DNA of 64,000 nt. It comes from Macrostomum lignano. Taxonomy: Eukaryota. The stretch spans positions 1 through 64,000 of the forward strand of contig NIVC01002540.1 of the NCBI GenBank assembly GCA_002269645.1. The letters run 5' to 3'. This document shows, one piece after another, positions 26,465 to 42,304 of this stretch (its first letter is position 1; each line of letters begins with the position of its first letter). Under the pieces are notes generated by a model that was not told the origin of the DNA, did no database searches, and saw only the letters and a program-made list of their open reading frames with translations. The translations under genes and the position numbers were made by a program.

Positions 26465-27521
26465 TGTAGAGTGTTCTACCTCCCATAAGAAGACATAAAA
26501 GTGTTAATGTACTACTCATACATTTTATTCAGTAGTAAGTTGAAGAGCATGAATAAAGGTATGCTTTGAATTATAAGTTTATTCTGACTAACCAATAGGA
26601 AGAGAGAGACCTTGTGCATGTTAAATTTAGAAATCACCCAATCACGTGTAACCTGTACTTGTCAAACGCAAACCCCAGGAAAGATGCATCATTCAACTGT
26701 ACGCACGTGACCCAATCAAATGTAACTAAAAATAACTCGAATGCGATGACCAATCACGCGCTTTTACACTGAACCAATGGAATGACTTTCTACCCTGCCA
26801 AGTTTGACAGCAACCAAACCGTGACCTTTTTGACAGCTGAAGAGTTGGACTCACGTGACCTCATGGGGGTCCAATTGCCTATAAATACAAGTGGTCCGGA
26901 ACGGACCCGGAGCCAAAAAAATCTCCAAGAGAGAGAAGCTCCGAAGAGGAAGCTCTAGTGAAGCCTTCCTGAAGAAACTCGCGTCGTGGACGAGTTCTTG
27001 CGGTAAGCCTTACTCATTTGCGCCCGTTGGTTGAGACGTCTCGCTCAAGTCTATTGAGACTTGAGTTTATTTGAGTCTGTTGAGACTCCTGAGTCTGTTT
27101 AGACTCTACTGGTTGCAGTCTCCAGAAGGACTGCCCCTGATAGATCTTAGAAGACTATCAGTGGTTTCCGGAGCTATACCTAGAGTGCATAGAGGCACTG
27201 CTAGAAGGAGTAGGCTTATATTAAACCGCAGATTGGCGCAGGGTACCCATTGTTAATTTGGAAGCTTCCCATTGGTCCGCACTACAGATACCGGCCGGAA
27301 ATACTTCGAAGGGAGAGAAAAGGAAACTCGGACCCAATCGACATCTGAAGACGTCTAAAAGTCTAAGAGATCTACAGAACCGAACGACTCAAGAACGATA
27401 TCAAGGAATCCGGATCAAGGTAATTGAATACCTTCATTTGATTACTGGGTTGCCTAGCTACAGAGCTAGAAGTGATTGTTCCTTGATTACAGTTGAGGAC
27501 TGGTAATAAGGAACGCCATCA
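26465..27521 (+). repeat. 5' LTR
   Basis: TGTAGAGTG...GAACGCCATCA; direct repeat of 36339-37395. By eye I saw one difference (CCCATAAG vs CCCGTAAG). Confidence 0.96.
26580..26890 (+). promoter_or_regulatory. LTR U3 promoter: clustered CCAAT boxes, CACGTG E-boxes and TATA box
   Basis: At least five CCAAT motifs, three CACGTG motifs (TCACGTGT, GCACGTGAC, TCACGTGAC) and TATAAA at 26880-26885. Confidence 0.6.
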
Positions 27522-27523
27522 AT

Positions 27524-27534
27524 TGGTGATCTCG
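27524..27534 (+). other. Primer-binding site, probably tRNA-Trp
   Basis: TGGTGATCTCG starts 2 nt after the 5' LTR. It matches the tRNA-Trp-type PBS TGGTGACCCCG with two G:U-compatible changes; the tRNA identity is an inference. Confidence 0.6.
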
Positions 27535-28295
27535 CCCTCTCGGCACTACTCAAACTTTGAGCAATAGCCCTGATCAAGCTATTGTAACGTGACGAAAGAG
27601 CGACTTCATTAATTTTGCGCGCACGTGTTAGAGTTAACACTTTTGAAGTCCGAACGTTTTGAAACTCGAGTAAAAATTTTGGTGTACAGGTTTGAGCACC
27701 TGTCAATTTTGAGTACAGTTTGAGCACGCGTGTAAATTTTTGTTTTAACGAGCTCGAGCAAGTGTGAGTTTAAAATAAACCGAAAAACAAACCGAAAATA
27801 AAAAGAATCGTCGAAGCAAAACAAACAAAAAAATAACTAAAACATTTTACCGGCACAAAAACTAAAACAAAACCGAAAAACAACGTCCGGTACACTGAAA
27901 ACAAACCGAAAAGTAATCAATACACACTAAAACAAAACCGAAATTAAAAACACTTGACGAAAGCTAAAACAAACCGAAAATTGATAAAACGTGACAAGGC
28001 ACGTCACAAAGACAAGAAAGGCCTTTGAAAAAAACAAGAAGACAAAGTCCACTTCAACGTGAAGATACACTTTGCGGGACGCCGCATAAGTGCGAAATCA
28101 GCAAGCGAACAGAACAAGTTCATTTGAGGACAACCAGTGGCAGCAAGCCACACCGCATTCGAGGCCAACGAATAACAAATCGACACCACAAGGCAATTCG
28201 TTACAGTCGAAGTTTATTCCGAGGCAAACACCACACTGGACGATCCGTTACAAATCGATCCAGATCTTGAACTACCGTTCTACCCTATCAACAAC

Positions 28296-31200
28296 ATGGC
28301 GCGGCGCAATCCAACGGTACACAGAGACATCAAAGAAACGGTCGGTACTTTCTCGATGGAGAAAGATTTTAACACATTTGTCGACCATTTCGACCTGGTA
28401 TGTAGGGAATACAACCTAAAAAATCCAGAGAAGGCACAGCTGCTGCCACCTCTTCTCCAAGGTACTGCGCGAGAAATTTACGGCAAGCTGGACGCGGCAA
28501 CACAGCAAAATTATCCAGCACTAATCATTCAACTGCGCGCGCATTTCAACCGTTGCGGCACAAACAGATCAGTGCTGCTGCACAAGTTACATACCAGAAG
28601 GATGCAAGCAACGGAATCCTTCCTCGCCTTTGTGGACGATATCCGCCAGATAATTAAGGCACTGCATCAGCCACCGCTGCAAGCTGCGGACCAACCGCCA
28701 CTGGGAGCGGCAGAATTGGCCGCCAGAGAAAGACAGCGATTGATGGATCGCGAACAAAACCTAATCCTGCACGTAATAAACAACGCACAGCCGTCACTTC
28801 GGGATAGACTTTTACGAGAAAATATCGAAACCGAAGAAGACCTTTTGCGGTGCGGAATGCAATGGGAAGCCAGTGCCCCATTAATGACGACAGGCAACAA
28901 TGAAGTGCAGAAACTGACGCAGCAATTAAACAAGTTAATGCAGCACCAGACAGCTGCTATCGCCGAACAAAAAAGACGAAATGAACAAGCCTCAGCCAGA
29001 TGTTACTACTGCGGACAAGAAGGACATTATCAGATTAATTGTCCTCATTGGTCAACAAGATACGACAAGCCGCGACAGATATTCAACAATCAAAAGCCGC
29101 AGAAACCATGGCAGCAATATCAAAATCGCCAACAACAAGGCATGAGACGCTTCGGAAATGATAGACGCTTCGGAAATAATGACCGCTCCGGAAATGATGG
29201 CCGCTTCGGAAATGATGGCCGCTTCGGAAATGACGGCCGCTTCAGAAATAATAGCTACAGGCCACGCAACGCCAGGTACACACAAAGACAGCCAACGCAA
29301 GCAATGCCACGATACGCGAATGCCATCACGTACACACCGGAAAATGAGCAGCAAGAACAGCAAGTGTTCACAATTGATGACTTGGAAATGGACTTCACAG
29401 TCCCGGAACTTGACATCAGCTTGATCGAAAAAAAGACAACGCACGAGGACAACACTGACAAGGCAGAAGAGGCGAATGAAACCGAAATGATCGAATTAAA
29501 AGAGACCACCGGAGACAGCAGAGAAAACAGGAAGAAAGTAAATCACAAAAAAAGGGAGGAGGCGGAGAGCGATACCGGCAACGAAGAAAAGAGGGAGACC
29601 AACGAAGAGAACAACTATGAATCAACAGCAGTGAAAGACGACAAAATAAGCATGAAAGACAAAGAAATAAAAGAAGAAGAATGTAAGAGTTACGGCAACG
29701 ATCACGACTGCGAGGTGCGTGATGACACGAACGTCTACCAAGCCGAAGAAGGAATGCAGGAAGAACTGAGAGCGGAAAATCTAAGCTCCGACAGCGATCA
29801 AGGCTACGAAATACAATGGAAGGATGAAGAAATGGAAAAAGAACAGAGGAAAGAAAAGCCGAGTTCCGACAGCGACGAATGCTACGAGATCCGATACAAA
29901 CGAAATGGTGAAGCCTACATTCAAACAGTCGACTACAAGACAGAGAGAAAATACCAAACGCAATGGAGTGAAACAACTGAAACATCAGAAGAAGCGGCAG
30001 ACGAAGATACTGAAATAACCAAAAAGCAAAGCGAATCAGAACCCTTCCGCCTGAAACAGCCAATAGAGCAACCGGAAGGATATGATGCGGACATGGAAGA
30101 TAACGAATGGCAGTCGCGGCCAATGCCAGCAAAGACAACGGCAAAGTCCAAAAAGTGGAAAAACTGGCTACTCTGGATCATCGTGATACTACTGATAGCA
30201 GTAGTCGCCAAAGCAAAGGCAACGGAAAAGCCAATGATCTGTCCAACGGATGCGCATATCCAACCGATGATCTACAAGATACCAACCGACATCAAATGCA
30301 GCTACTTCAAGACAAACCAGACGAAGCCAAAGAAGATTACACTTGATCTCTACAAGGCTAACATCAAAAAGCATCGACAACACGGAATAGTGTGCTGCAG
30401 AGACAAGCACCTAGTGGAAAAAGTCTGGCGCGGACAATGGAATAGGATCCGATTTAAACAACATGAGCTACATGTGTCGCACGCGGAATGCCTACAATGG
30501 AACCAAACACTGTTTTCAAAGGATGGTGAACTGGAACCAGATGAGAAGGTCGGCAACGCACAGCTGTTCAGAACAAAGAATTCAGCCAACGGTCGATACA
30601 TTCACTTCTTCGGAAAATGGAAAGAATATGTAGCACGCAACAGCTACTTGATCAGAAATATTCCATTCTACTACAATCCATACGAGAAAATGGAATCGCT
30701 ACAGCTACAACTAAGCGAATGTCGATACAGTGAAGGATGGTGTCCAACACCAATTCTACGGAAGGAAGAATTACACAGTCTACCACTGAGTCCAACATAT
30801 CATCAAAACTATCGATGGCAGATTGAGCACAGAGCACAATCACACTATGAGGAACCGTACAAGGCACGACAATATTACTTCGCATGGGAAGTAGAGCCGG
30901 AAATTGACTGCAAGCTTCAAAAGTACCACACAGTGGAAGGAGGGCTACTGTCGAATACATTTTTGGCAAAAGCAGGAGACTTGGCCTTGACGTTTCAAAG
31001 GAAGCCGGTCGAACAGGAACTCAAATGCAAAGATACGGACAAGACGCTATTCATTTCGGAACAAGAAATACCAGTCTACGTGAAGGATGCTGACAAACAA
31101 ACCTTCCTGGCAATCATAAATGGAACATATCAGCAACAAGAGAGACAACGACGCGGCATAGAACGTCCACGATTGGTGTCAAACCGACTGCTGTCAGCAA

Positions 31201-32450
31201 AGATCACGGCGCTGGATCACAACCTGCATAACCAGCTTAACCACTTACATCGGTCACTGGTTCAGCTAACTTGCAAAATGCACGCAATCAACTTGAACTA
31301 CGCAAGGCAAAACTACTATGTCAACCCTACGATGACATTTCGCAAGATCACGGGAATGAGAGAGGTTCTGGCAATTCCGATATATGGACATCTCCTGATA
31401 TACAAGTGCACGCCGATACAGCACTTCAACATCTTGCCGTCGAACACTTCAACAACTTGCTACGACAAGCCGAGAATTGAAGCATTCTACGAAGGCAAAA
31501 GAATACAAGGATTCTTGGACACAGTACACAACATCATCGTTGGCACAGCCATACCAAGACCCTGCACCACTGCAGCAAACTACTATCAACTGGACAATGC
31601 ACTACACGTCATTAAAACGACAGGAACGACAGCGAACATCACGGAACCAGAAGTGATTGTCGATGAAACGTACGATATGGACGATCTGAAGATACGGTTC
31701 AACAGAACGAAGTACACGCCATTCGCCGATATCCAACTCGATGAGATAACACCCGGATGGACCATCAACGACTTCTTGCAAGCGTTCATCACTCAACGGA
31801 AGATGATTCGTCAACTCTTCACACGAAAGAATAAAGGAACAGGCACAGGCAGTTTTCCGGTCCTAGTGTCTATGGACAACGCCATCCAATCGTTTTGGAC
31901 CAACAGCTTCTTAGAGCTGCTTAACGGAAAAGGCAGCCTCTATCAAGGCTTCATCTTCTACAGTGCCTGTGTTGTATGGGTAGTTACGGCAATCTTTATC
32001 ATCTCGTCGATAGTACGATGCTTCAGCAACACTTGTCCCACAGCGAAACGAACAGTGAACGCCATCATGCAGAAGATACCAAGGGAAGAAGACAACAACT
32101 TGGAATTGACAGAGGATGCACGTCAAGAAACTCAAGGACAGCCGACACCATCAACGCGAATGTATCCATCGATTCCGACAACACCAACAGCACCGAGAAT
32201 GCAGCCACCTGGCTATCAGCAGGATCAACACGAGCCGAAATGGCCAGAAAACTACGTCTGCACGCTACACGCTGAGATTGGCAAGGCAATGGCTCAGGTC
32301 ATTGTCAACAACTTGCCATGTCGAGCACTACTGGATTCAGGCAGCTCTATCACCGTCATCTCGCAACAATTATGCAACAAGCTACGACTCGCGGTACGAC
32401 CAGCAGCAATCGCAGTTGCAGGAGCAGGAGGACATTCACTCAATATCTAG
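28296..32450 (+). CDS. Gag - acidic linker - signal peptide - Env-like glycoprotein - TM - cytoplasmic tail - N-half of aspartic protease (1384-aa ORF)
   Basis: Kozak AACATGG. Capsid-like FNTFVDHFDLVCREY...KAQLLPPLLQGTAREIY. CCHC knuckle CYYCGQEGHYQINC at 29001-29042. Signal WLLWIIVILLIAVVAKAKA at ~30156-30221. Cys-rich ectodomain with N-glycosylation sequons (NQT, NGT, NTS, NIT, NRT). RQRR at 31143-31154. TM FIFYSACVVWVVTAIFIISSIV at ~31950-32015. Protease LLDSGS at 32328-32345. Confidence 0.9.
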   Translation: MARRNPTVHRDIKETVGTFSMEKDFNTFVDHFDLVCREYNLKNPEKAQLLPPLLQGTAREIYGKLDAATQQNYPALIIQLRAHFNRCGTNRSVLLHKLHTRRMQATESFLAFVDDIRQIIKALHQPPLQAADQPPLGAAELAARERQRLMDREQNLILHVINNAQPSLRDRLLRENIETEEDLLRCGMQWEASAPLMTTGNNEVQKLTQQLNKLMQHQTAAIAEQKRRNEQASARCYYCGQEGHYQINCPHWSTRYDKPRQIFNNQKPQKPWQQYQNRQQQGMRRFGNDRRFGNNDRSGNDGRFGNDGRFGNDGRFRNNSYRPRNARYTQRQPTQAMPRYANAITYTPENEQQEQQVFTIDDLEMDFTVPELDISLIEKKTTHEDNTDKAEEANETEMIELKETTGDSRENRKKVNHKKREEAESDTGNEEKRETNEENNYESTAVKDDKISMKDKEIKEEECKSYGNDHDCEVRDDTNVYQAEEGMQEELRAENLSSDSDQGYEIQWKDEEMEKEQRKEKPSSDSDECYEIRYKRNGEAYIQTVDYKTERKYQTQWSETTETSEEAADEDTEITKKQSESEPFRLKQPIEQPEGYDADMEDNEWQSRPMPAKTTAKSKKWKNWLLWIIVILLIAVVAKAKATEKPMICPTDAHIQPMIYKIPTDIKCSYFKTNQTKPKKITLDLYKANIKKHRQHGIVCCRDKHLVEKVWRGQWNRIRFKQHELHVSHAECLQWNQTLFSKDGELEPDEKVGNAQLFRTKNSANGRYIHFFGKWKEYVARNSYLIRNIPFYYNPYEKMESLQLQLSECRYSEGWCPTPILRKEELHSLPLSPTYHQNYRWQIEHRAQSHYEEPYKARQYYFAWEVEPEIDCKLQKYHTVEGGLLSNTFLAKAGDLALTFQRKPVEQELKCKDTDKTLFISEQEIPVYVKDADKQTFLAIINGTYQQQERQRRGIERPRLVSNRLLSAKITALDHNLHNQLNHLHRSLVQLTCKMHAINLNYARQNYYVNPTMTFRKITGMREVLAIPIYGHLLIYKCTPIQHFNILPSNTSTTCYDKPRIEAFYEGKRIQGFLDTVHNIIVGTAIPRPCTTAANYYQLDNALHVIKTTGTTANITEPEVIVDETYDMDDLKIRFNRTKYTPFADIQLDEITPGWTINDFLQAFITQRKMIRQLFTRKNKGTGTGSFPVLVSMDNAIQSFWTNSFLELLNGKGSLYQGFIFYSACVVWVVTAIFIISSIVRCFSNTCPTAKRTVNAIMQKIPREEDNNLELTEDARQETQGQPTPSTRMYPSIPTTPTAPRMQPPGYQQDQHEPKWPENYVCTLHAEIGKAMAQVIVNNLPCRALLDSGSSITVISQQLCNKLRLAVRPAAIAVAGAGGHSLNI

Positions 32451-34471
32451 GAAAAGCAGATATCGACTTGAAAATTGCTAATAAACATCTGACGGTCCCG
32501 ACGTACATCATCGACAAACTACCAAACCAAGACGTCATTGTTGGAATCGACACGTTCAAGCAGCTTCGACTACCATTGACCTTCGACTTCAACAAGCAAA
32601 CGTTTAGGATTGACACGGTGGAGCAACCACTGATTAACCAGATTCGAGTACTACCAAAAGTTACCTTACAGCAAGATGTCATCATCCAGCCTGAAAGTGC
32701 ATGCTGGGTCAGAGCGAAAGCGACCAGCGCGGCAGATGAAGCAATGATATTTGATCCACACAGGAGAGTCACGGCAAAACATCAAATCATGATGCCTACG
32801 GCACTAGTGCTGGTGGCGAAAGATAAGCAGCTGCCAGTACAAATCTTCAACCCGAACGCGGAAATGGTTCATCTACGACAAGGAATGTGCATCGGTCATC
32901 TCAACACTCAAGCATCAGTTATGCTGATTGAGCACACGACTCCACGACTAACAGAAGAAGAATTTCAAAAGAAAATCAACTTGGACGACAGCCCGATCAC
33001 GGAACAGCAAAAGAAGAAAGTTCGACAACTGTTGTGGAAGTACAACGAAGCCTTCTGCCATCATGATTACGACATCGGACGCGCTAAAGACATTAAACAA
33101 GAAATCAAGCTTCTACCGCACACTGAACCAATTCAGTGCAAGCCGTACCCGATTGCCAAGCATCTGCAACAACACTTTGACGAAATTATTGATAAAATGC
33201 TAAAGCACGGCATCATCAGCAAAGCAATTTCAGCCTATTCCTCACCGTGCCTACTGGTACAAAAGAAAGAGACTAACGAGAGACGACTTGTATGCGACTT
33301 CAGACTGCTGAACAAGTACATACCGACGGATCAGCAAAGCCTACCAAAGATCTCCGAGCTACTAGCAAAGCTCAACACAGCAAAATTGTTCACGGTGTTC
33401 GACCTACGTCATGGATTTTGGCAAATTGAAATCGAGAAAGAATCACGACAGTACACGGCTTTTAAGACCTACAATGGACAAGTCTACGAGTACAACCGAT
33501 CGCCAATGGGACTCAGCAACAGCCCAGCAACAATGAGCCGACTAACGGCATACATGCTTGCAGGATGCACAAACCTGCTGCACTATGTCGACGACATCTT
33601 GGCCTACGGAGAAGACTTCCAACGACTCTATGAAGCTACGGAGAAGGCCCTAGCGCTCATTCAACGCCAAGGTCTTAAGCTACAACCGACGAAATGCAAA
33701 TTCTTCCGAGACAACGTACGTTACCTAGGACACCAAGTGACAGCCAAAGGAATCTCACCGGACCCAGACAATGTGGAGAAAGTAAAAAAGTTTCCTACGC
33801 CAACTAGCATTACGAAGGTCCAATCGTTTCTTGGACTAGCGCAATACTTCCGAAAGTTCTTACCGAACTTCGCGAAGACAGCAAAACCGCTGTACGACCT
33901 GCTCAAATTCGACAAGTGGAAACGAGAGAACTGGACGCAAAAGCAGCAAGAGAGTTTCGACGAAATCAAACGACAACTGACATCAGACGCACTACTACAG
34001 CATCCGGACTTCGACAAACCCTTCATCATCGAGACAGACGCCTCAGGAACGGGACTCGGAGCCGTCCTACTACAGGAAACCGAGGACAAGAAGGAGCGAC
34101 CTATCGCCTACGTCAGTCGAGCACTCAAGCCAAATGAAACAAAGTGGTCAGCTACGGAACGCGAGCTACTAGGAGTCTTGTTCGCCCTACGACAGTTCCA
34201 TTACTACATCTATGGTTCTCCAATACCGACGATAGTACGCACAGATCACGCACCGCTGACCTACGTCGTAACTACAAAAGGACAAACAAATAACCGACTC
34301 ATCAGGATGACACTCAAGATCCAGGACTACAACTACAAGCTCGTCTACAAACCAGGAATTACTAACAAGGCGCGGACGCTCTGTCAAGAGCCTACGAAGT
34401 CAACGCCATTCATCCAATCCCTAACATCAAGGAATTGGTGGATGAGACTGAACACGACAACTTCTACATAG
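32318..34471 (+). CDS. Pol part 1: protease C-half, dUTPase-like spacer, reverse transcriptase, RNase H (true reading starts ~32448 via a -1 shift)
   Basis: DVIVGIDTF (protease end); YSSPCLLVQKK...RRLVCDFRLLN; FTVFDLRHGFWQI; YNRSPMGLSNSPATM; YVDD at 33584-33595; RNase H IETDASGTGLGAVL, WSATERELLG, RTDHAPL. Confidence 0.95.
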   Translation: MSSTTGFRQLYHRHLATIMQQATTRGTTSSNRSCRSRRTFTQYLGKADIDLKIANKHLTVPTYIIDKLPNQDVIVGIDTFKQLRLPLTFDFNKQTFRIDTVEQPLINQIRVLPKVTLQQDVIIQPESACWVRAKATSAADEAMIFDPHRRVTAKHQIMMPTALVLVAKDKQLPVQIFNPNAEMVHLRQGMCIGHLNTQASVMLIEHTTPRLTEEEFQKKINLDDSPITEQQKKKVRQLLWKYNEAFCHHDYDIGRAKDIKQEIKLLPHTEPIQCKPYPIAKHLQQHFDEIIDKMLKHGIISKAISAYSSPCLLVQKKETNERRLVCDFRLLNKYIPTDQQSLPKISELLAKLNTAKLFTVFDLRHGFWQIEIEKESRQYTAFKTYNGQVYEYNRSPMGLSNSPATMSRLTAYMLAGCTNLLHYVDDILAYGEDFQRLYEATEKALALIQRQGLKLQPTKCKFFRDNVRYLGHQVTAKGISPDPDNVEKVKKFPTPTSITKVQSFLGLAQYFRKFLPNFAKTAKPLYDLLKFDKWKRENWTQKQQESFDEIKRQLTSDALLQHPDFDKPFIIETDASGTGLGAVLLQETEDKKERPIAYVSRALKPNETKWSATERELLGVLFALRQFHYYIYGSPIPTIVRTDHAPLTYVVTTKGQTNNRLIRMTLKIQDYNYKLVYKPGITNKARTLCQEPTKSTPFIQSLTSRNWWMRLNTTTST

Positions 34472-35796
34472 CAGTTAAAAACAACGACAAGGACATCAAG
34501 CTCAGCCCCGTGGAACGAAAATTCCTGCGCAAGCAGCGACAACATTTAACAATCAACAAGTCACGACTCTACTGGATGAGTGACAACAAACCTAAAATCT
34601 ACATGCCATATTCGTTTAGGCAGGCCATTCTCAACGAGCTGCACGACAACCCACTCGCTGGACACCTGTCGGCAGCCAAAACCATTGCAAGAGTGGAGCA
34701 ATACTACTTTTGGCCAAGCATGCATGGCGACATCAAGCAGTATTGCAACAACTGCCACTCATGCGCAGCATCGAAGACAGGACGACGACAGAAACCACAG
34801 CTACAATCGATACCGAAGTCAACAACTATGGACTGTCTCAGCATCGACATCACCGGACCGCTGCCACCGAGCTGTCTCCATGGCATAGCCTACACCTACA
34901 TCCTAACAGCCTTGGACATTTTCTCAAAGTTTGCTATTGCCATACCAATACCGGACATCACAGCTCAGACAGTGGCAATGGGTTTCTTCAACGACATCAT
35001 CTGCAAGTACGGTACGCCAAAGAACCTCACATCGGACAATGGATCGCAGTTTACGTCTCAACTCTTTCAGCAAGTGGTGAAGATCCTCAACATCACGCAG
35101 ATCTACACATCGACCTACAATCCGAAGGCGAACATGGTTGAAAGGTTTCACCGCAACCTACACGAGATGATTACACACTTCGCGCATCAACAACCGGACG
35201 ACTGGATCATCTATCTGCAAGCAGTAACAATGGCCTACAACAGCGCTATTCATCGATCAACGGATAATACGCCATTCTTTCTAATGTTTGGGCGAGACTT
35301 CCAGCCGCCAAACCTATTGGCACAGCAACTACTACCATCGCAATATGTGGAAGTCCCGACGTCCATTCAAAAGTTCGTCACGCAACTACACCTCGCATGG
35401 AAAGTAGCCAAGCACAACATCGACAATCAGGTGGCTCTAACCACCGGCACCGACACGAGATCGACAACTCTGACAGCCGGCGACATCGTCTACCTGCACT
35501 ATCCGCCGCAACAGACGCACAAACACGCACAGAAGTACAAAGGACCATATCGAGTGGTCCAACTAACGTCACCGACAACGGCACGCCTGGCCAATGTGCA
35601 AGATCCTCATCAGCACCAATTCTACGTGCACATTCATCGACTAAAGAAGATCAACACTGACACGACAACGTTTTTACCGTCACTAGACAACGCTGATCGC
35701 ACGCGTTCGGCGAACCGCCACATCGCAACAAAACACGAGGAGACACAAACATCAACCGAGAAACAGCAACATGGCTACAATCTGCGACCTCGTTAA
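34373..35796 (+). CDS. Pol part 2: integrase (continues from RNase H via a -1 shift at ~34370)
   Basis: The frame opens with ADALSRAY (end of RNase H). HHCC LHDNPLAGH...CNNCHSC; DDE SIDITG / SDNGSQF / MVERF; KYKGPYRV (GPY/F module); ends GYNLRPR*. Confidence 0.95.
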
Positions 35797-35907
35797 GTTG
35801 CGAAAATAACCCGTGTAGAGACCGGGTCAGAATAGCTCTACAGCTTCGCAAGCTTGTCGTAAGAGGCGACTAATCTGAGCGACTTCAAACTTCAAGCGAC
35901 GACGACA

Positions 35908-36120
35908 ATGGGCAACGCACTGTCCAAACAGGCGCCCCAACTACAGCAACTCTACGAATGCCCAATATGTTTAACTGACGACTTGGCTGTCAAGCCACCA
36001 ATTATTTGTGAAAACAGACATCGCATATGCGGACAATATTTAGGCGACTCACATTATATTCAGCTCTGGCAGAATTGCCCGATAGGTAGAAGAAGTTTGC
36101 GGCAGTGCGCCTATCGTTAG
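35908..36120 (+). CDS. Small accessory ORF: N-myristoylation motif plus degenerate RING finger (70 aa)
   Basis: Strong Kozak ACAATGG; MGNALS fits MGxxxS; CPIC-x12-C-x3-H-x2-C-x2-[Y]-x12-C-x2-[G]R follows C3HC4 RING spacing with two ligands replaced. Confidence 0.65.
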   Translation: MGNALSKQAPQLQQLYECPICLTDDLAVKPPIICENRHRICGQYLGDSHYIQLWQNCPIGRRSLRQCAYR

Positions 36121-36338
36121 TCTTGGCGCACATGTCAATACTGTAACCAAAAACATTTTATTTGCATGAGTATACTTACCTTTAAATAACTTTTATAACC
36201 AACGCTCTTAACTACCCATTACTAAATACCTGTAACACTTGTGACAAAAGATTTTTATAAAGACATGCTCGAACTTTTTACGCGTTTCAATCCTCTATTT
36301 AAAACTCGGGACGAGTTTTTTGTAAACATGGGAGATTT

Positions 36339-37395
36339 TGTAGAGTGTTCTACCTCCCGTAAGAAGACATAAAAGTGTTAATGTACTACTCATACATTTT
36401 ATTCAGTAGTAAGTTGAAGAGCATGAATAAAGGTATGCTTTGAATTATAAGTTTATTCTGACTAACCAATAGGAAGAGAGAGACCTTGTGCATGTTAAAT
36501 TTAGAAATCACCCAATCACGTGTAACCTGTACTTGTCAAACGCAAACCCCAGGAAAGATGCATCATTCAACTGTACGCACGTGACCCAATCAAATGTAAC
36601 TAAAAATAACTCGAATGCGATGACCAATCACGCGCTTTTACACTGAACCAATGGAATGACTTTCTACCCTGCCAAGTTTGACAGCAACCAAACCGTGACC
36701 TTTTTGACAGCTGAAGAGTTGGACTCACGTGACCTCATGGGGGTCCAATTGCCTATAAATACAAGTGGTCCGGAACGGACCCGGAGCCAAAAAAATCTCC
36801 AAGAGAGAGAAGCTCCGAAGAGGAAGCTCTAGTGAAGCCTTCCTGAAGAAACTCGCGTCGTGGACGAGTTCTTGCGGTAAGCCTTACTCATTTGCGCCCG
36901 TTGGTTGAGACGTCTCGCTCAAGTCTATTGAGACTTGAGTTTATTTGAGTCTGTTGAGACTCCTGAGTCTGTTTAGACTCTACTGGTTGCAGTCTCCAGA
37001 AGGACTGCCCCTGATAGATCTTAGAAGACTATCAGTGGTTTCCGGAGCTATACCTAGAGTGCATAGAGGCACTGCTAGAAGGAGTAGGCTTATATTAAAC
37101 CGCAGATTGGCGCAGGGTACCCATTGTTAATTTGGAAGCTTCCCATTGGTCCGCACTACAGATACCGGCCGGAAATACTTCGAAGGGAGAGAAAAGGAAA
37201 CTCGGACCCAATCGACATCTGAAGACGTCTAAAAGTCTAAGAGATCTACAGAACCGAACGACTCAAGAACGATATCAAGGAATCCGGATCAAGGTAATTG
37301 AATACCTTCATTTGATTACTGGGTTGCCTAGCTACAGAGCTAGAAGTGATTGTTCCTTGATTACAGTTGAGGACTGGTAATAAGGAACGCCATCA
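36339..37395 (+). repeat. 3' LTR
   Basis: Preceded by a short purine tract ATGGGAGA; same sequence as the 5' LTR at offset 9874; followed by TSD TTAG. Confidence 0.96.
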
Positions 37396-37418: not shown

Positions 37419-39082
37419 GGCTTAACAGTCGGATGACGAAGCTATTTTTCCATTGCACGGATGCCGATGGGGGGGGGGTATTTCAAATACCCAAAAAGTT
37501 ATCCACGCCATAACTCTTGAACCCGACCATGGATTCGTCTGAAAATTCACAGTACGGGCTAAAATTTATCGAGTAATCTGATGAAGCCATCGCCGACTCT
37601 CTCCGACATCGAGATCGTCGAGATATTCAGCGATTCTCAAGGAGGTCCCCCTGTTTTTGAAGGCAAACCGTCGAATTCAGTGGCTAGGTCTTGACACCAG
37701 GCAGTAAGGTGCACAAAATGATCCCAAACCTCATTTCAGCCATTGGTGAGGTAACCCAGAACACTTGTAGTGCGCTACAACAATGCCCCGTGGCCACCGT
37801 CGACCATCGTCAGGACATTCAACGAGCACATTCTGACATCATCGGAATTTGAGATCCGAAACAAATTTCGGTCAAATATTTATTATGAAATTTTGTCAAT
37901 GAGCAACCTACGAACCACTGCAGTCACGCCTAGTTATTTTGCGCCGTTTCGCTTATCGATCGTTAGGAAAAATGTCCAAGGATCAATTTGAAAAAAAACA
38001 GAATCGCACGAAGTTTTTATTTGTTCATAAACGCAGCAATTTTCTTTTTTTAGCACACAGAAAGTGCTTGTGAATTGTTCTTAAAACTGGCGCAACAGAG
38101 TAAAGTCGCTATGGAACGGTGTCATTGAATAAACAGTCTAATAAACATGGAATAAACAGTTGTAAAGGAATAAACAGTCTGCAATGATCTGCAATAAACA
38201 GCATGCAATGGACGCATGAACCAAAATTGTACACAGCAAGGCCTCCACTTTTTTCATTCACCGCCATGTCTTGTCCCACCTGTCTTGTTCCACGTAAACT
38301 TTTAGTGTCACTTTCTCTTACTCACTCAGACTTTTACACTAAAAGATGTACCCAGTTTTGTCCAAATTAACGAAAAAAATCGGTTTAGCTGAATCGAAAT
38401 GCAGAATCTATATGGACTAATAACTAGGCGTGACTGCAGTGGTTCGTAGGTTGCTCATTAGTTAGTTGCGCGCTTAGATTGCTAGGGTGCTCATTGGTGA
38501 GGCTTGATCAAGAATTTCTAGCCAAAGTATATGCTAGACTGTCAGAAGTCGGATGGACACATCCGTTGAAGGTCCCGACGGTCGTCCAGACGGTCGGGAT
38601 GGTGCAGGAAGTATAGTGACTGCAGTGGTTCGTAGGCTGCTCATTGACAAAATTTCATAATAAATATTTGACCGAAATTTGTTTCGGATCTCAAATTCCG
38701 ATGATGTCAGAATGTGCTCGTTGAATGTCCTGACGATGGTCGACGGTGGCCACGGGGCATTGTTGTAGCGCACTACAAGTGTTCTGGGTTACCTCACCAA
38801 TGGCTGAAATGAGGTTTGGGATCATTTTGTGTACCTTACTGCCTGGTGTCAAGACCTAGCCACTGAATTCGACGGTTTGCCTTCAAAAACAGGGGGACCT
38901 CCTTGAGAATCGCTGAATATCTCGACGATCTCGATGTCGGAGAGAGTCGGCGATGGCTTCATCAGATTACTCGATAAATTTTAGCCCGTACTGTGAATTT
39001 TCAGACGAATCCATGGTCGGGTTCAAGAGTTATGGCGTGGATAACTTTTTGGGTATTTGAAATACCCCCCCATCGGCATCCG
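37419..39082. mobile_element. Foldback/MULE-like non-autonomous DNA element with ~470-bp inverted arms
   Basis: 37458-37927 is the near-perfect reverse complement of 38616-39082. A 9-bp direct repeat CCTGTTTTA lies at 37410-37418 and 39083-39091. No transposase ORF inside. Confidence 0.75.
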
Positions 39083-40125: not shown

Positions 40126-41585
40126 TCAGACAGTGGTCAGTTCAACAGTGTCGCTGCTGACGGCGGCGGTTGTGGCGGCAGCGGTGGCGGTGCCAGCGTC
40201 GTTGCTCTGCTGTCGGTGTCGTCGGCGCTTGTGCCGGTCGGCAACAGGCGCCGGGCGCCGGCACGCCTGCCAGGCGTCGGACTGGCCAGCCGCAACCAGC
40301 AGGCGGCGCAGTTCGCCAACTGTGGCGGCGGCGGCGGCGGCGGCGGCGGATTCGGAGTAGCGACGCAGGAGGAGGCCGGCGGGGCTGGTGGAGTCAGCTC
40401 GGGCGCGGGACTCCAGCTCGGAGACGGCGTCAGCGTTGTTGCCTGAAGAGAGGTGGGTAGCGATGTATTTTATCGCGCTAGTGGGCAAACTACTCTACTG
40501 ATAGTAGGAAGGGCCGCAAATGCAATTATGATGCTTCCGATAGCATAGATAAACTGAGCTGCAGTCCCTGCACTGCCCTGAGCTGCAGTCCCTGCACTGC
40601 CTGAGCTGCAGTCCCTGCACTGCCTGAGCTGCAGTCCCTGCACTGCCTGAGCTGCAGTCCCTGCACTGCCCTGAGCAGCAGTCCCTGCACTGCCCTGAGC
40701 TGCAGTCCCTGCACTGCCCTGAGCTGCAGTCCCTGCACTGCCTGAGCTGCAGTCCCTGCACTGCCCTGAGCTGCAGTCCCTGCACTGCCCTGAGCTGCAG
40801 TCCCTGCACTGCCTGAGCTGCAGTCCCTGCACTGCCCTGAGCTGCAGTCCCTGCACTGCCCTGAGCTGCAGTCCCTGCACTGCCTGAGCTGCAGTCCCTG
40901 CACTGCCTGAGCTGCAGTCCCTGCACTGCCTGAGCTGCAGTCCCTGCACTGCCCTGAGCTGCAGTCCCTGCACTGCCTGAGCTGCAGTCCCTGCACTGCC
41001 CTGAGCTGCAGTCCCTGCACTGCCTGAGCTGCAGTCCCTGCACTGCCCTGAGCTGCAGTCCCTGCACTGCCCTGAGCTGCAGTCCCTGCACTGCCTGAGC
41101 TGCAATCCCTGCACTGCCTGAGCTGCAGTCCCTGTACTGCCCTGAGCTGCAGTCCCAAGGACCGCCAGACTCACCCATCTCAGCAGCCAGAGCTTTCCAA
41201 CCATCTCGACAGTCCAGCGCCAGCTCCAGACGCCTCAGTCGCGAGTCGGGCAAGTCAGCCAGCGGCAGCGCATCGTCTGGAAAGTCGTCTTCGGCTTCGA
41301 AGTCGGGCACAGCAGCCTCGGTCAGCGGAGCGGTGACGTCGGCTGTGTGCGACGAGTGCAACGGCGGCTGCAGCTTCGAGTCGCGGCCGCGGCTGCGCGC
41401 GTGCTTGAGCACAACCCAGAGCACCAGGCCGCAGATGAGGGCGCCAAGGAGGCCGCAGTACAGAGGGATCAGGTTGCTGGCGCCCGCGTTGGGCGCTCTG
41501 GACGGAAGAGGCTGCGCCAGCGGCTCTGTGTGATGGGGAACGGGGAGGGAACTGGCGTTGATAGATGCTGTCTCATTGGGGAGAT
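40126..41585 (-). CDS. NGFR: p75NTR/NGFR-like TNF-receptor-family protein: stalk, TM and death domain (last two exons 41175-41585 and 40126-~40490; upstream exons not located)
   Basis: TM segment NLIPLYCGLLGALICGLVLWVVLK closely resembles p75NTR NLIPVYCSILAAVVVGLVAYIAFK, including the TM cysteine. Death-domain helices RLRRLELALDCRDGWKALAAEMG / PAGLLLRRYS...ATVGELRRLLVAAGQSDA. Confidence 0.72.
40554..41156. repeat. 23/24-bp tandem repeat in the p75-like intron
   Basis: Unit CTGAGCTGCAGTCCCTGCACTGC(C), ~26 copies. Confidence 0.95.
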
Positions 41586-42304
41586 CTGGGAGAGTGGTTG
41601 GGGAAAGAAAAAGAAAAATTAGGCCAAAATCCACGCCTTATGAAAGCCAACCCCTAAACTGATTGACTGATTACAAGACTGATTACAAAGGCTTACAGAT
41701 TACAGTTCTCTGTACAGTGTATAGTTTACAAAGTTGTCAAATGCACTCAGTGTCTGAGTTTTATTAACTGCCGATTCCACAGCCCTCAGGTCTTAGCGAC
41801 AGAGCGTCAACCTGGAGGAAAAAATGGACAGTTCAGAACACCTAGCAAAACAAGCATGGAGTTATCTAACTCATATTTCATAATCAACGGTTTCGATGAC
41901 AGCACAGAATTCACGTAGAAGATTGAAAGCAACCCAAACAGACGGAACCCAGGCTCCTTATCGCGCCTCATCAATCAGTAGCTACCGGAGCGGCCCCCCG
42001 GGATTCTCGGTGGGACAACAAATCGCTGCCTGTTACGCAATCGCATCGCGACTGACTCGGATGAACGCGAAACACCAGGCGCAGACAGTCGCAATATACA
42101 GTATAGAAGTCAGCCACGAGTATACAAGCTACAGATAAGGAATCTGTTTGACTATCTCTTAGGACAAGAAAACAATTCACTTCAAGGAACAACCAACTCT
42201 TAGCCAAACCCACACTACATACACAATGAGGCCGACTGCAGGTTTTCAGTTTCAGATTGGGGAGTTTTTCTGCATCATTTTTTGCATTTTTAGAATAGCT
42301 AGCT

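Follow-up and report, generated by a model that had tools for sequence, protein, structure and literature searches.

Chary and Hayashi (PMC13524379) described errantiviruses with the gene order GAG-ENV-POL and an ENV of the HSV/gB type from Platyhelminthes, Nematoda and Bryozoa, and supplement file 2 of that paper lists an element from Macrostomum lignano, Platyhelminthes_Rhabditophora_Mlig_errantivirus_2. The words 'RING', 'zinc finger' and 'accessory' do not occur in the main text of PMC13524379, and a 3' cassette is not described there. Accessory genes located 3' of pol have been reported for other LTR elements. The ORF3s of rotifer elements are env, GDSL esterase or DEDDy exonuclease genes, with no match to 'RING' or 'ubiquitin' in the portion of the article covered (PMC5408684), and sORF2 of the MDG1 group of Drosophila, according to the portion of the source covered, specifies a single-pass, fusogen-like protein that often carries an MGxxxS/T motif (10.1101/2025.03.14.642691). 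One C3HC4 finger was noted in a Mutator transposon in the part of PMC6446971 covered. Extra 3' ORFs as such are already known in LTR elements. No LTR retrotransposon with a RING accessory gene or a tandem-RING cassette was found reported in the literature searched, which consisted of portions of papers; 'RING' is absent from the main texts of the papers covering these elements.

The sequence analysed here, referred to as the window, is a stretch of 64,000 nt from M. lignano (contig NIVC01002540.1 of assembly GCA_002269645.1, positions 1 to 64,000, forward strand). At 35908..36120 on the plus strand it contains a 70-aa ORF behind an integrase gene, and the original prediction was a small myristoylated RING protein, either a matrix factor reminiscent of arenavirus Z or a captured E3 ligase. 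From the analyses described below, the ORF appears to be what is left, with ligands missing, of the leading gene in a cassette of tandem-RING genes carried by a Ty3/gypsy element of the GAG-ENV-POL type. The full-length genes probably specify RING E3 ubiquitin ligases, which would mark host defence proteins for degradation. The probability of this reading is put at about 0.6. The ORF of the window is a broken marker leading to the RING family.

The retroelement carrying the ORF

The ORF resides in a young Ty3/gypsy insertion, the parts of which are all on the plus strand. The 5' LTR (26465..27521; 1057 nt, TG...CA, with a 4-bp target-site duplication at its flank) and the 3' LTR (36339..37395) are identical at 1056 of 1057 nt with one mismatch, and a 12-mer primer-binding site (PBS) is found at 27524..27535. 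ORF1 (28296..32450) comprises, in this order, Gag, a first hydrophobic segment, the Env ectodomain, a second hydrophobic segment, late-domain-like motifs and the start of an aspartyl protease. Gag contains a zf-CCHC domain at aa 236-251, and the hydrophobic segments are located at about aa 620-645 and 1217-1245. The C-terminal part of the protease, RT and RNase H follow at 32276..34471. In the window copy a frame break lies between them and ORF1, and a second break at the junction of RNase H and IN precedes the integrase (34366..35796). Pol of the order PR-RT-RH-IN, LTRs, PBS and target-site duplication are all present, and the element belongs to the published type of GAG-ENV-POL errantiviruses. 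Like the elements in the covered part of PMC13524379, it combines a Ty3/gypsy pol with a class III env between gag and pol, and it shares the same 12-nt PBS and a similar length with Mlig_errantivirus_2. The LTRs given for that entry in PMC13524379 measure 864 nt, however, versus 1057 nt in the window, and the window element is therefore regarded as a related subfamily and not as the entry itself. A heat-shock-element pattern is absent from the LTR.

The frame breaks were compared with sibling sequences. From the Env tail to PR-RT the frame is unbroken in all four sibling stretches spanning the junction, and from RT to IN in three out of five. Among 14 copies of the window subfamily none has an unbroken pol frame, and the break positions differ from copy to copy; these scattered breaks may be assembly indels. 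The stretch 28296-35796 seems to specify Gag, Env and Pol as a single polyprotein that includes two membrane segments.

The 70-aa ORF had originally been placed in the normal position of env. The ORF does not replace env, since an Env-like region was detected upstream of pol inside ORF1, in frame between gag and pro (30153..32027). The region contains 13 Cys, six sequons and two hydrophobic segments, and the approximately 570 aa between these segments resemble class III fusion glycoproteins of the Monjiviricetes / rhabdovirus G / gB type. Their Atlas feature score to the respective clusters is 0.95, with 207 of 256 features in common, a lead that comes without an E-value; Pfam gives no match for the region. 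In the Env tail, YPSI, PTAP and PPGY late-domain-like motifs are present (32163..32216), and across five lineages, the window included, YPxI is found in five and PTAP in four. These motifs sit between Env and protease, and the polyprotein with its two membrane segments would tether Gag and Pol to the membrane.

Other features of the window surround the element. Perfect inverted repeats of 456 nt, starting 77 nt behind the 3' LTR, bound an element at 37472-39071, likely a non-autonomous DNA transposon. A reading frame on the minus strand (40495-41637) matches the TNFR16 (p75NTR) transmembrane family (E 3.7e-06), extends into a tandem repeat and probably represents an exon of a host gene. At 1-26400 and 40400-63000 the window is dense in minisatellite arrays, the units of which measure 18-67 nt.

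The 70-aa ORF and its near copies

Several features read from the ORF itself were confirmed. It begins with MGNALS in a strong start context (A at -3, G at +4) and shows C3HC4-type spacing in which ligands 6 and 8 read Tyr and Gly, respectively, and Gag, which begins MARR, has no Gly2 and hence no myristoylation signal. Among the 124 ORFs of at least 60 aa in the window, an MGxxxS/T start is found in two and a RING half-pattern in two, both features together only in the 70-aa ORF; the start alone is not rare within the window. Lacking ligands 6 and 8, the ORF falls short of the eight ligands of a RING. On its own it is assigned to no Pfam family, the best match being baculovirus IE-0 with E 0.077, and its 11 matches in the PDB, to TRAF6 and SIAH1, are weak (best E 0.044).

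The small ORF had been taken for a complete gene, which proved incorrect. Its stop codon lies just inside a second RING (RING2), and the frame beyond the stop continues into this RING up to 36168, leaving a RING2 remnant (36121..36168, plus strand) outside the ORF. Homology to relatives ends at 36168 and resumes at 36299. The 130 nt in between (36169..36298, plus strand) stand in place of about 1.3 kb in the relatives, which hold there the remainder of the first RING gene, ORF-A, and the whole second RING gene. Judged by these comparisons, the 70-aa ORF is almost certainly a truncated relic of a larger gene family.

At least 22 near copies (96-100% identity) and more distant ones at 82-87% were detected, with 40 of 341 candidates of the DNA search scored; the copy counts may overstate the number of insertions, as the assembly of this species has been called redundant in the part of PMC12801592 covered. 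The position of the stop codon that follows codon 70 is identical in all 22 near copies. The question had been raised whether the consensus of sibling copies has Cys at both degenerate ligands. At ligand 8 all 22 specify Gly, and at ligand 6 six copies have Cys and 16 have Tyr. Variant sites among the near copies amount to 9 N : 5 S in the ORF vs 35 N : 113 S in the integrase (Fisher p 0.003), where the sites counted in the integrase come from two internal lineages. The proposed check for neutral evolution gave a divided answer: with a pN/pS of 0.48 for the ORF, obtained from few sites, neutrality was not rejected (p 0.15), and there may be residual constraint. Compared to full-length relatives, the window copy shows dN/dS values of 0.15-0.19, from which it is concluded that its decay is recent.

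These data also bear on the idea that the truncated 70-aa peptide is functional itself, as a membrane-anchored decoy or dominant-negative protein. In 20 of the 22 near copies the start codon with its surrounding context and the frame of 70 codons are intact, and the pN/pS value points in the same direction. A common frame is expected by descent, however, in copies that are 96-98% identical, an earlier frameshift is present in the other two copies, the ligands 6 and 8 are lost, and the N:S ratio is significantly above that of the integrase, which makes a function of the peptide highly improbable. The relic is not the only truncated form: the 48 distinct variants starting with MGNA in the fetched loci include nine of 222 aa, 16 of 70 aa and eight of 124 aa.

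The full-length tandem-RING family

In sister subfamilies, the cassette consists of two to three paralogous genes for proteins of 200-222 aa, each with a first RING (RING1), RING2 and a helical domain. A protein search of the source genome yielded 145 matches among 150 scored candidates. Twenty distant loci were fetched, and in 17 of them integrase or other pol/ORF1 sequences lie beside the RING genes (tblastn). Locus L079, in which only sibling cassettes were matched (blastn), raises the number of element-associated loci to 18; L070 matches siblings over 3 kb, with the integrase match absent, and L073 is a decayed solitary copy. The two most numerous young subfamilies carry truncated cassettes of 70 aa and 124 aa, and the cassette is therefore considered dispensable in cis. 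On contigs C2121, C1130, C87, C272 and C4009 of the source genome, G000, many copies of different subfamilies are adjacent in one orientation, some with duplicated cassettes; such clusters might have arisen as tandem arrays or might serve as sources of small RNAs. At locus L033, unannotated tandem ORFs of 428 and 221 aa are located beyond the 3' LTR of the element; from their appearance they might encode capsid proteins of an element resembling Polintons.

The members of the family are diverse. In an alignment of 19 open ORFs, which were selected with broken copies left out, pairwise identity drops to 20-27%. Of the 16 zinc-ligand columns, 15 do not vary and the remaining one is almost constant; the spacing is that of complete eight-ligand RINGs. 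A Trp-Pro motif is kept in the C-terminal part. Paralogues are 20-40% identical to each other, and the profiles of ORF-A and of the following genes, ORF-B/C, are homologous end to end (197 columns, probability 99.6). Values of dN/dS are 0.12-0.28 for ORF-A (7 of 45 pairs) and 0.14-0.29 for B/C (6 of 55 pairs), counting pairs with dS defined and below 1.5, the remaining ones being saturated. Constraint is present in the RING as well as in the C-terminal parts, and the full-length genes are under purifying selection.

A HMMER scan of 1.84 billion proteins gave six matches at 1e-10 or better: an M. lignano gene model containing segments identical to one cassette gene, four Logan proteins, three of which are full-length with 28-41% identity to family members, and one multi-RING protein. 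Going by these sequences, the RING family probably extends beyond the source genome. Word-seeded protein searches gave no match with P0002 and none with alignment A3, and for the helical domain only P0005.

Regarding the fold, Sina_RING is the best Pfam family for 17 of 19 members, with E values down to 3e-07, and the Pfam RING scores of the proteins of the window clade are all below the curated cut-offs. PDB profile matches include TRIM5, SIAH1, RING1B and TRIM21. The AlphaFold2 model of a full-length protein has a mean pLDDT of 87.8, and its residues 10-73, corresponding to RING1, align to RING E3 domains with Z values of 3.4-4.5. The motif CPxCR is present in RING1 of 23 out of 23 proteins, and the corresponding Arg in RING2 of none. 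With C-x3-H spacing and CPxCR, RING1 resembles the C3HC4 domains of Siah/Sina and TRAF-type E3 ligases. Siah/Sina proteins combine the RING with two zinc fingers and a substrate-binding domain, but in the cassette proteins the Sina_RING part alone is matched, followed by a second RING and the helical domain. Because of the Sina_RING and PDB matches, a host ligase resembling Siah or TRAF proteins is the likely source of RING1, which would have been captured and duplicated.

The C-terminal domain is predicted to be all-helical and has no Pfam family at E 10. Structure searches against BFVD with models of the whole protein and of the helical domain gave no match at E 0.001. In a VIA fold search the whole protein reached a Z of at most 5.0 and the helical domain one of 5.6, both below the level of more than a common arrangement, values which do not imply a new fold.

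With the full-length product at hand, the comparison to arenavirus Z can be judged. Z proteins carry an N-terminal Gly2 myristoylation motif and late domains (C-terminal PTAP or PPxY). A separate myristoylated matrix or budding protein working like Z would fit the MGxxxS start of the window's clade, the lack of Gly2 in Gag and weak phmmer matches of RING2 of one ORF-A to four Z chains (E 0.086-1.9). With a RING2 profile, however, the Z matches weaken to E 3.6-8.2, behind TRIM32, and no Z protein is found among the 60 matches listed in the PDB profile searches or among the 11 of the window ORF. Z chains measure 90-99 aa with one RING, whereas the ORF-A family reaches 222 aa with two RINGs. The Gly2 motif is present in four of eight ORF-A proteins and in none of 11 B/C proteins; the four form a single clade with support of 100/99, placed within a set of other ORF-A genes that start with MAKK, MANT, MDCP or MTAI. 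Late-domain motifs were detected in none of the eight ORF-A proteins, and a single YPxxL-like match in one of the 11 B/C proteins. Finally, ORF1 supplies late motifs and two hydrophobic anchors of its own, which, joined to Gag and Pol, would anchor both without a separate matrix protein. A Z-like matrix function, as suggested originally, can be given hardly any credence, and the myristoylation motif was probably added in one clade for localisation, as far as sequence comparison can tell.

Expression and proposed function of the cassette

The first RING gene is preceded by a predicted non-coding RNA motif of 66 nt (35810..35875, plus strand), an H-type pseudoknot in which the loop of a stem pairs with a downstream strand, followed by two small hairpins. 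The motif is kept across lineages whose integrases are only about 65-70% identical. In the alignment, 98% of the cells pair compared to 32-42% in slid controls, and in two pairs of the pseudoknot both partners are altered (10 cells), a cell count reached in none of 500 shuffles and a pair count reached in 419; as the structure was derived from the same 12 related sequences, these values are support and not proof. The motif core occurs at 103 sites in the source genome vs one for a control pattern, and a RING match lies 60-200 nt downstream in 98 of 100 sites listed. Apart from one match at chance level (E 0.5), Rfam gave none, and to our knowledge none of the known ribozyme folds fits the motif. 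Possible precedents are intergenic xrRNAs upstream of coding ORFs, of which the xrRNA-D type agrees in position and in the presence of a pseudoknot (covered part of PMC6299227), and ribozymes aiding translation (covered part of PMC13725137).

There is no ATG between the integrase stop and the 70-aa ORF. Readthrough of the stop codon from the integrase into ORF-A was considered and rejected, since the spacer varies in length and contains an in-frame stop in one lineage (by eye). Contigs presumed to derive from RNA cover the element and the cassette, a coverage that does not bear on transcription, starts or splicing, and their joints match deletions present in the DNA. A skip of 209 nt before the ORF is supported on one side by no more than 20 letters and lacks GT-AG ends. 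By eye, CAG is found within 2 nt of the ATG in nine of nine second-position genes shown and in none of three third-position genes, which hints at splicing of the second gene. The first gene, in turn, might be translated from the 3' part of the RNA, assisted by the pseudoknot, and the second from a spliced RNA.

The notion of a captured E3 ligase fits the gene family, with its Siah-type RING1, invariant CPxCR, purifying selection and paralogue expansion, but not the copy in the window, which is truncated and lacks ligands. In RING E3 ligases, an Arg of the RING1-type loop, the linchpin, locks E2~ubiquitin for transfer. RING1 of the family has the E2-facing loop residues together with this Arg. 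A Trp in the central helix is found in many active RINGs; Siah-type RINGs are without it, and so is RING1 of the family. A complex predicted for ORF-A and a host Ubc4/5-like E2, in which alignments were unused, scored 0.06 (mark 0.34) and counts neither way. Based on CPxCR and the linchpin Arg, RING1 would bind and activate E2~ubiquitin, and RING2, lacking the Arg, would serve as a structural partner in an arrangement resembling a fused RING heterodimer. The divergent helical domain would select the substrate, giving each paralogue a different target, and myristoylation would put the enzyme of one clade at membranes.

Instead, the full-length proteins could be non-catalytic RING scaffolds or regulators, for instance of transcription or translation like some viral RING proteins. 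Compatible with this are the helical domain without assignable fold, the weak Pfam match of RING1 to baculovirus IE-0 (E 0.0039), seen also with the window ORF, and the nearest Atlas and BFVD neighbours, uncharacterised RINGs encoded by large DNA viruses and all short of significance. The strict Pro and Arg in loop 2 of RING1 but not of RING2, however, are expected under selection for E2 activation, and a scaffold function is considered unlikely. Alternatively, E3 ligases might act on the element's own products or receptors, in Gag/Env ubiquitination for ESCRT budding, receptor down-regulation or superinfection exclusion. While PTAP, YPxI and PPxY motifs in the Env tail and the Gly2 membrane-targeting motif of one clade would suit such a role, subfamilies without an intact cassette amplified recently, as the nearly identical LTRs and the near copies of the window element indicate, and two to three paralogues at their level of divergence suggest several targets; the probability of this alternative is regarded as quite low.

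E3 ligases directed against host defence remain the preferred reading. To overcome defence, retroviral proteins such as Vif and Vpu recruit ligases of the host, and it is mainly in large DNA viruses that RING ligases are known to be self-encoded. Accessory RING E3 ligases of viruses, such as ICP0 of herpesviruses and PE38 / IE-0 of baculoviruses, have a counter-defence role, and by analogy to them the cassette may have one as well. Virus-encoded RINGs, giant-virus proteins included, fill the BFVD and Atlas lists, but there is no match at E 0.001 or better, one RING alone is alike, and the carriers are large DNA viruses and not retroelements. Dispensability in cis together with strong selection elsewhere is what is expected of a trans-acting accessory factor, and a cassette working in trans would allow subfamilies without it to amplify. 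From the accessory genes of sORF2 and rotifer ORF3 type, as far as described in the portions of PMC5408684 and 10.1101/2025.03.14.642691 covered, the cassette differs by its two RINGs and several paralogues and by the presence of Env in the same element; the location 3' of pol is common to all of them, and the MGxxxS/T motif is shared with sORF2.

In a broader and more tentative picture, which we regard as possible but somewhat doubtful, these flatworm elements would be 'complex' invertebrate endogenous retroviruses. They would combine Gag, class III Env and Pol with an expanding multigene family of tandem-RING E3 ligases that has a new substrate-binding domain and a dedicated expression pseudoknot and degrades host restriction or silencing factors, with cassette-less subfamilies riding in trans. 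If true, an LTR retroelement with a RING cassette that is under selection and duplicated would represent a new way of transposon counter-defence in animals, and the targets of the cassette would hint at host anti-retroelement factors in a tractable worm model.

As a separate observation, the source genome is rich in intronless E2 (UQ_con) genes, including Ubc4/5-like and Rad6-like ones, an example being located at L105:1480-1923.
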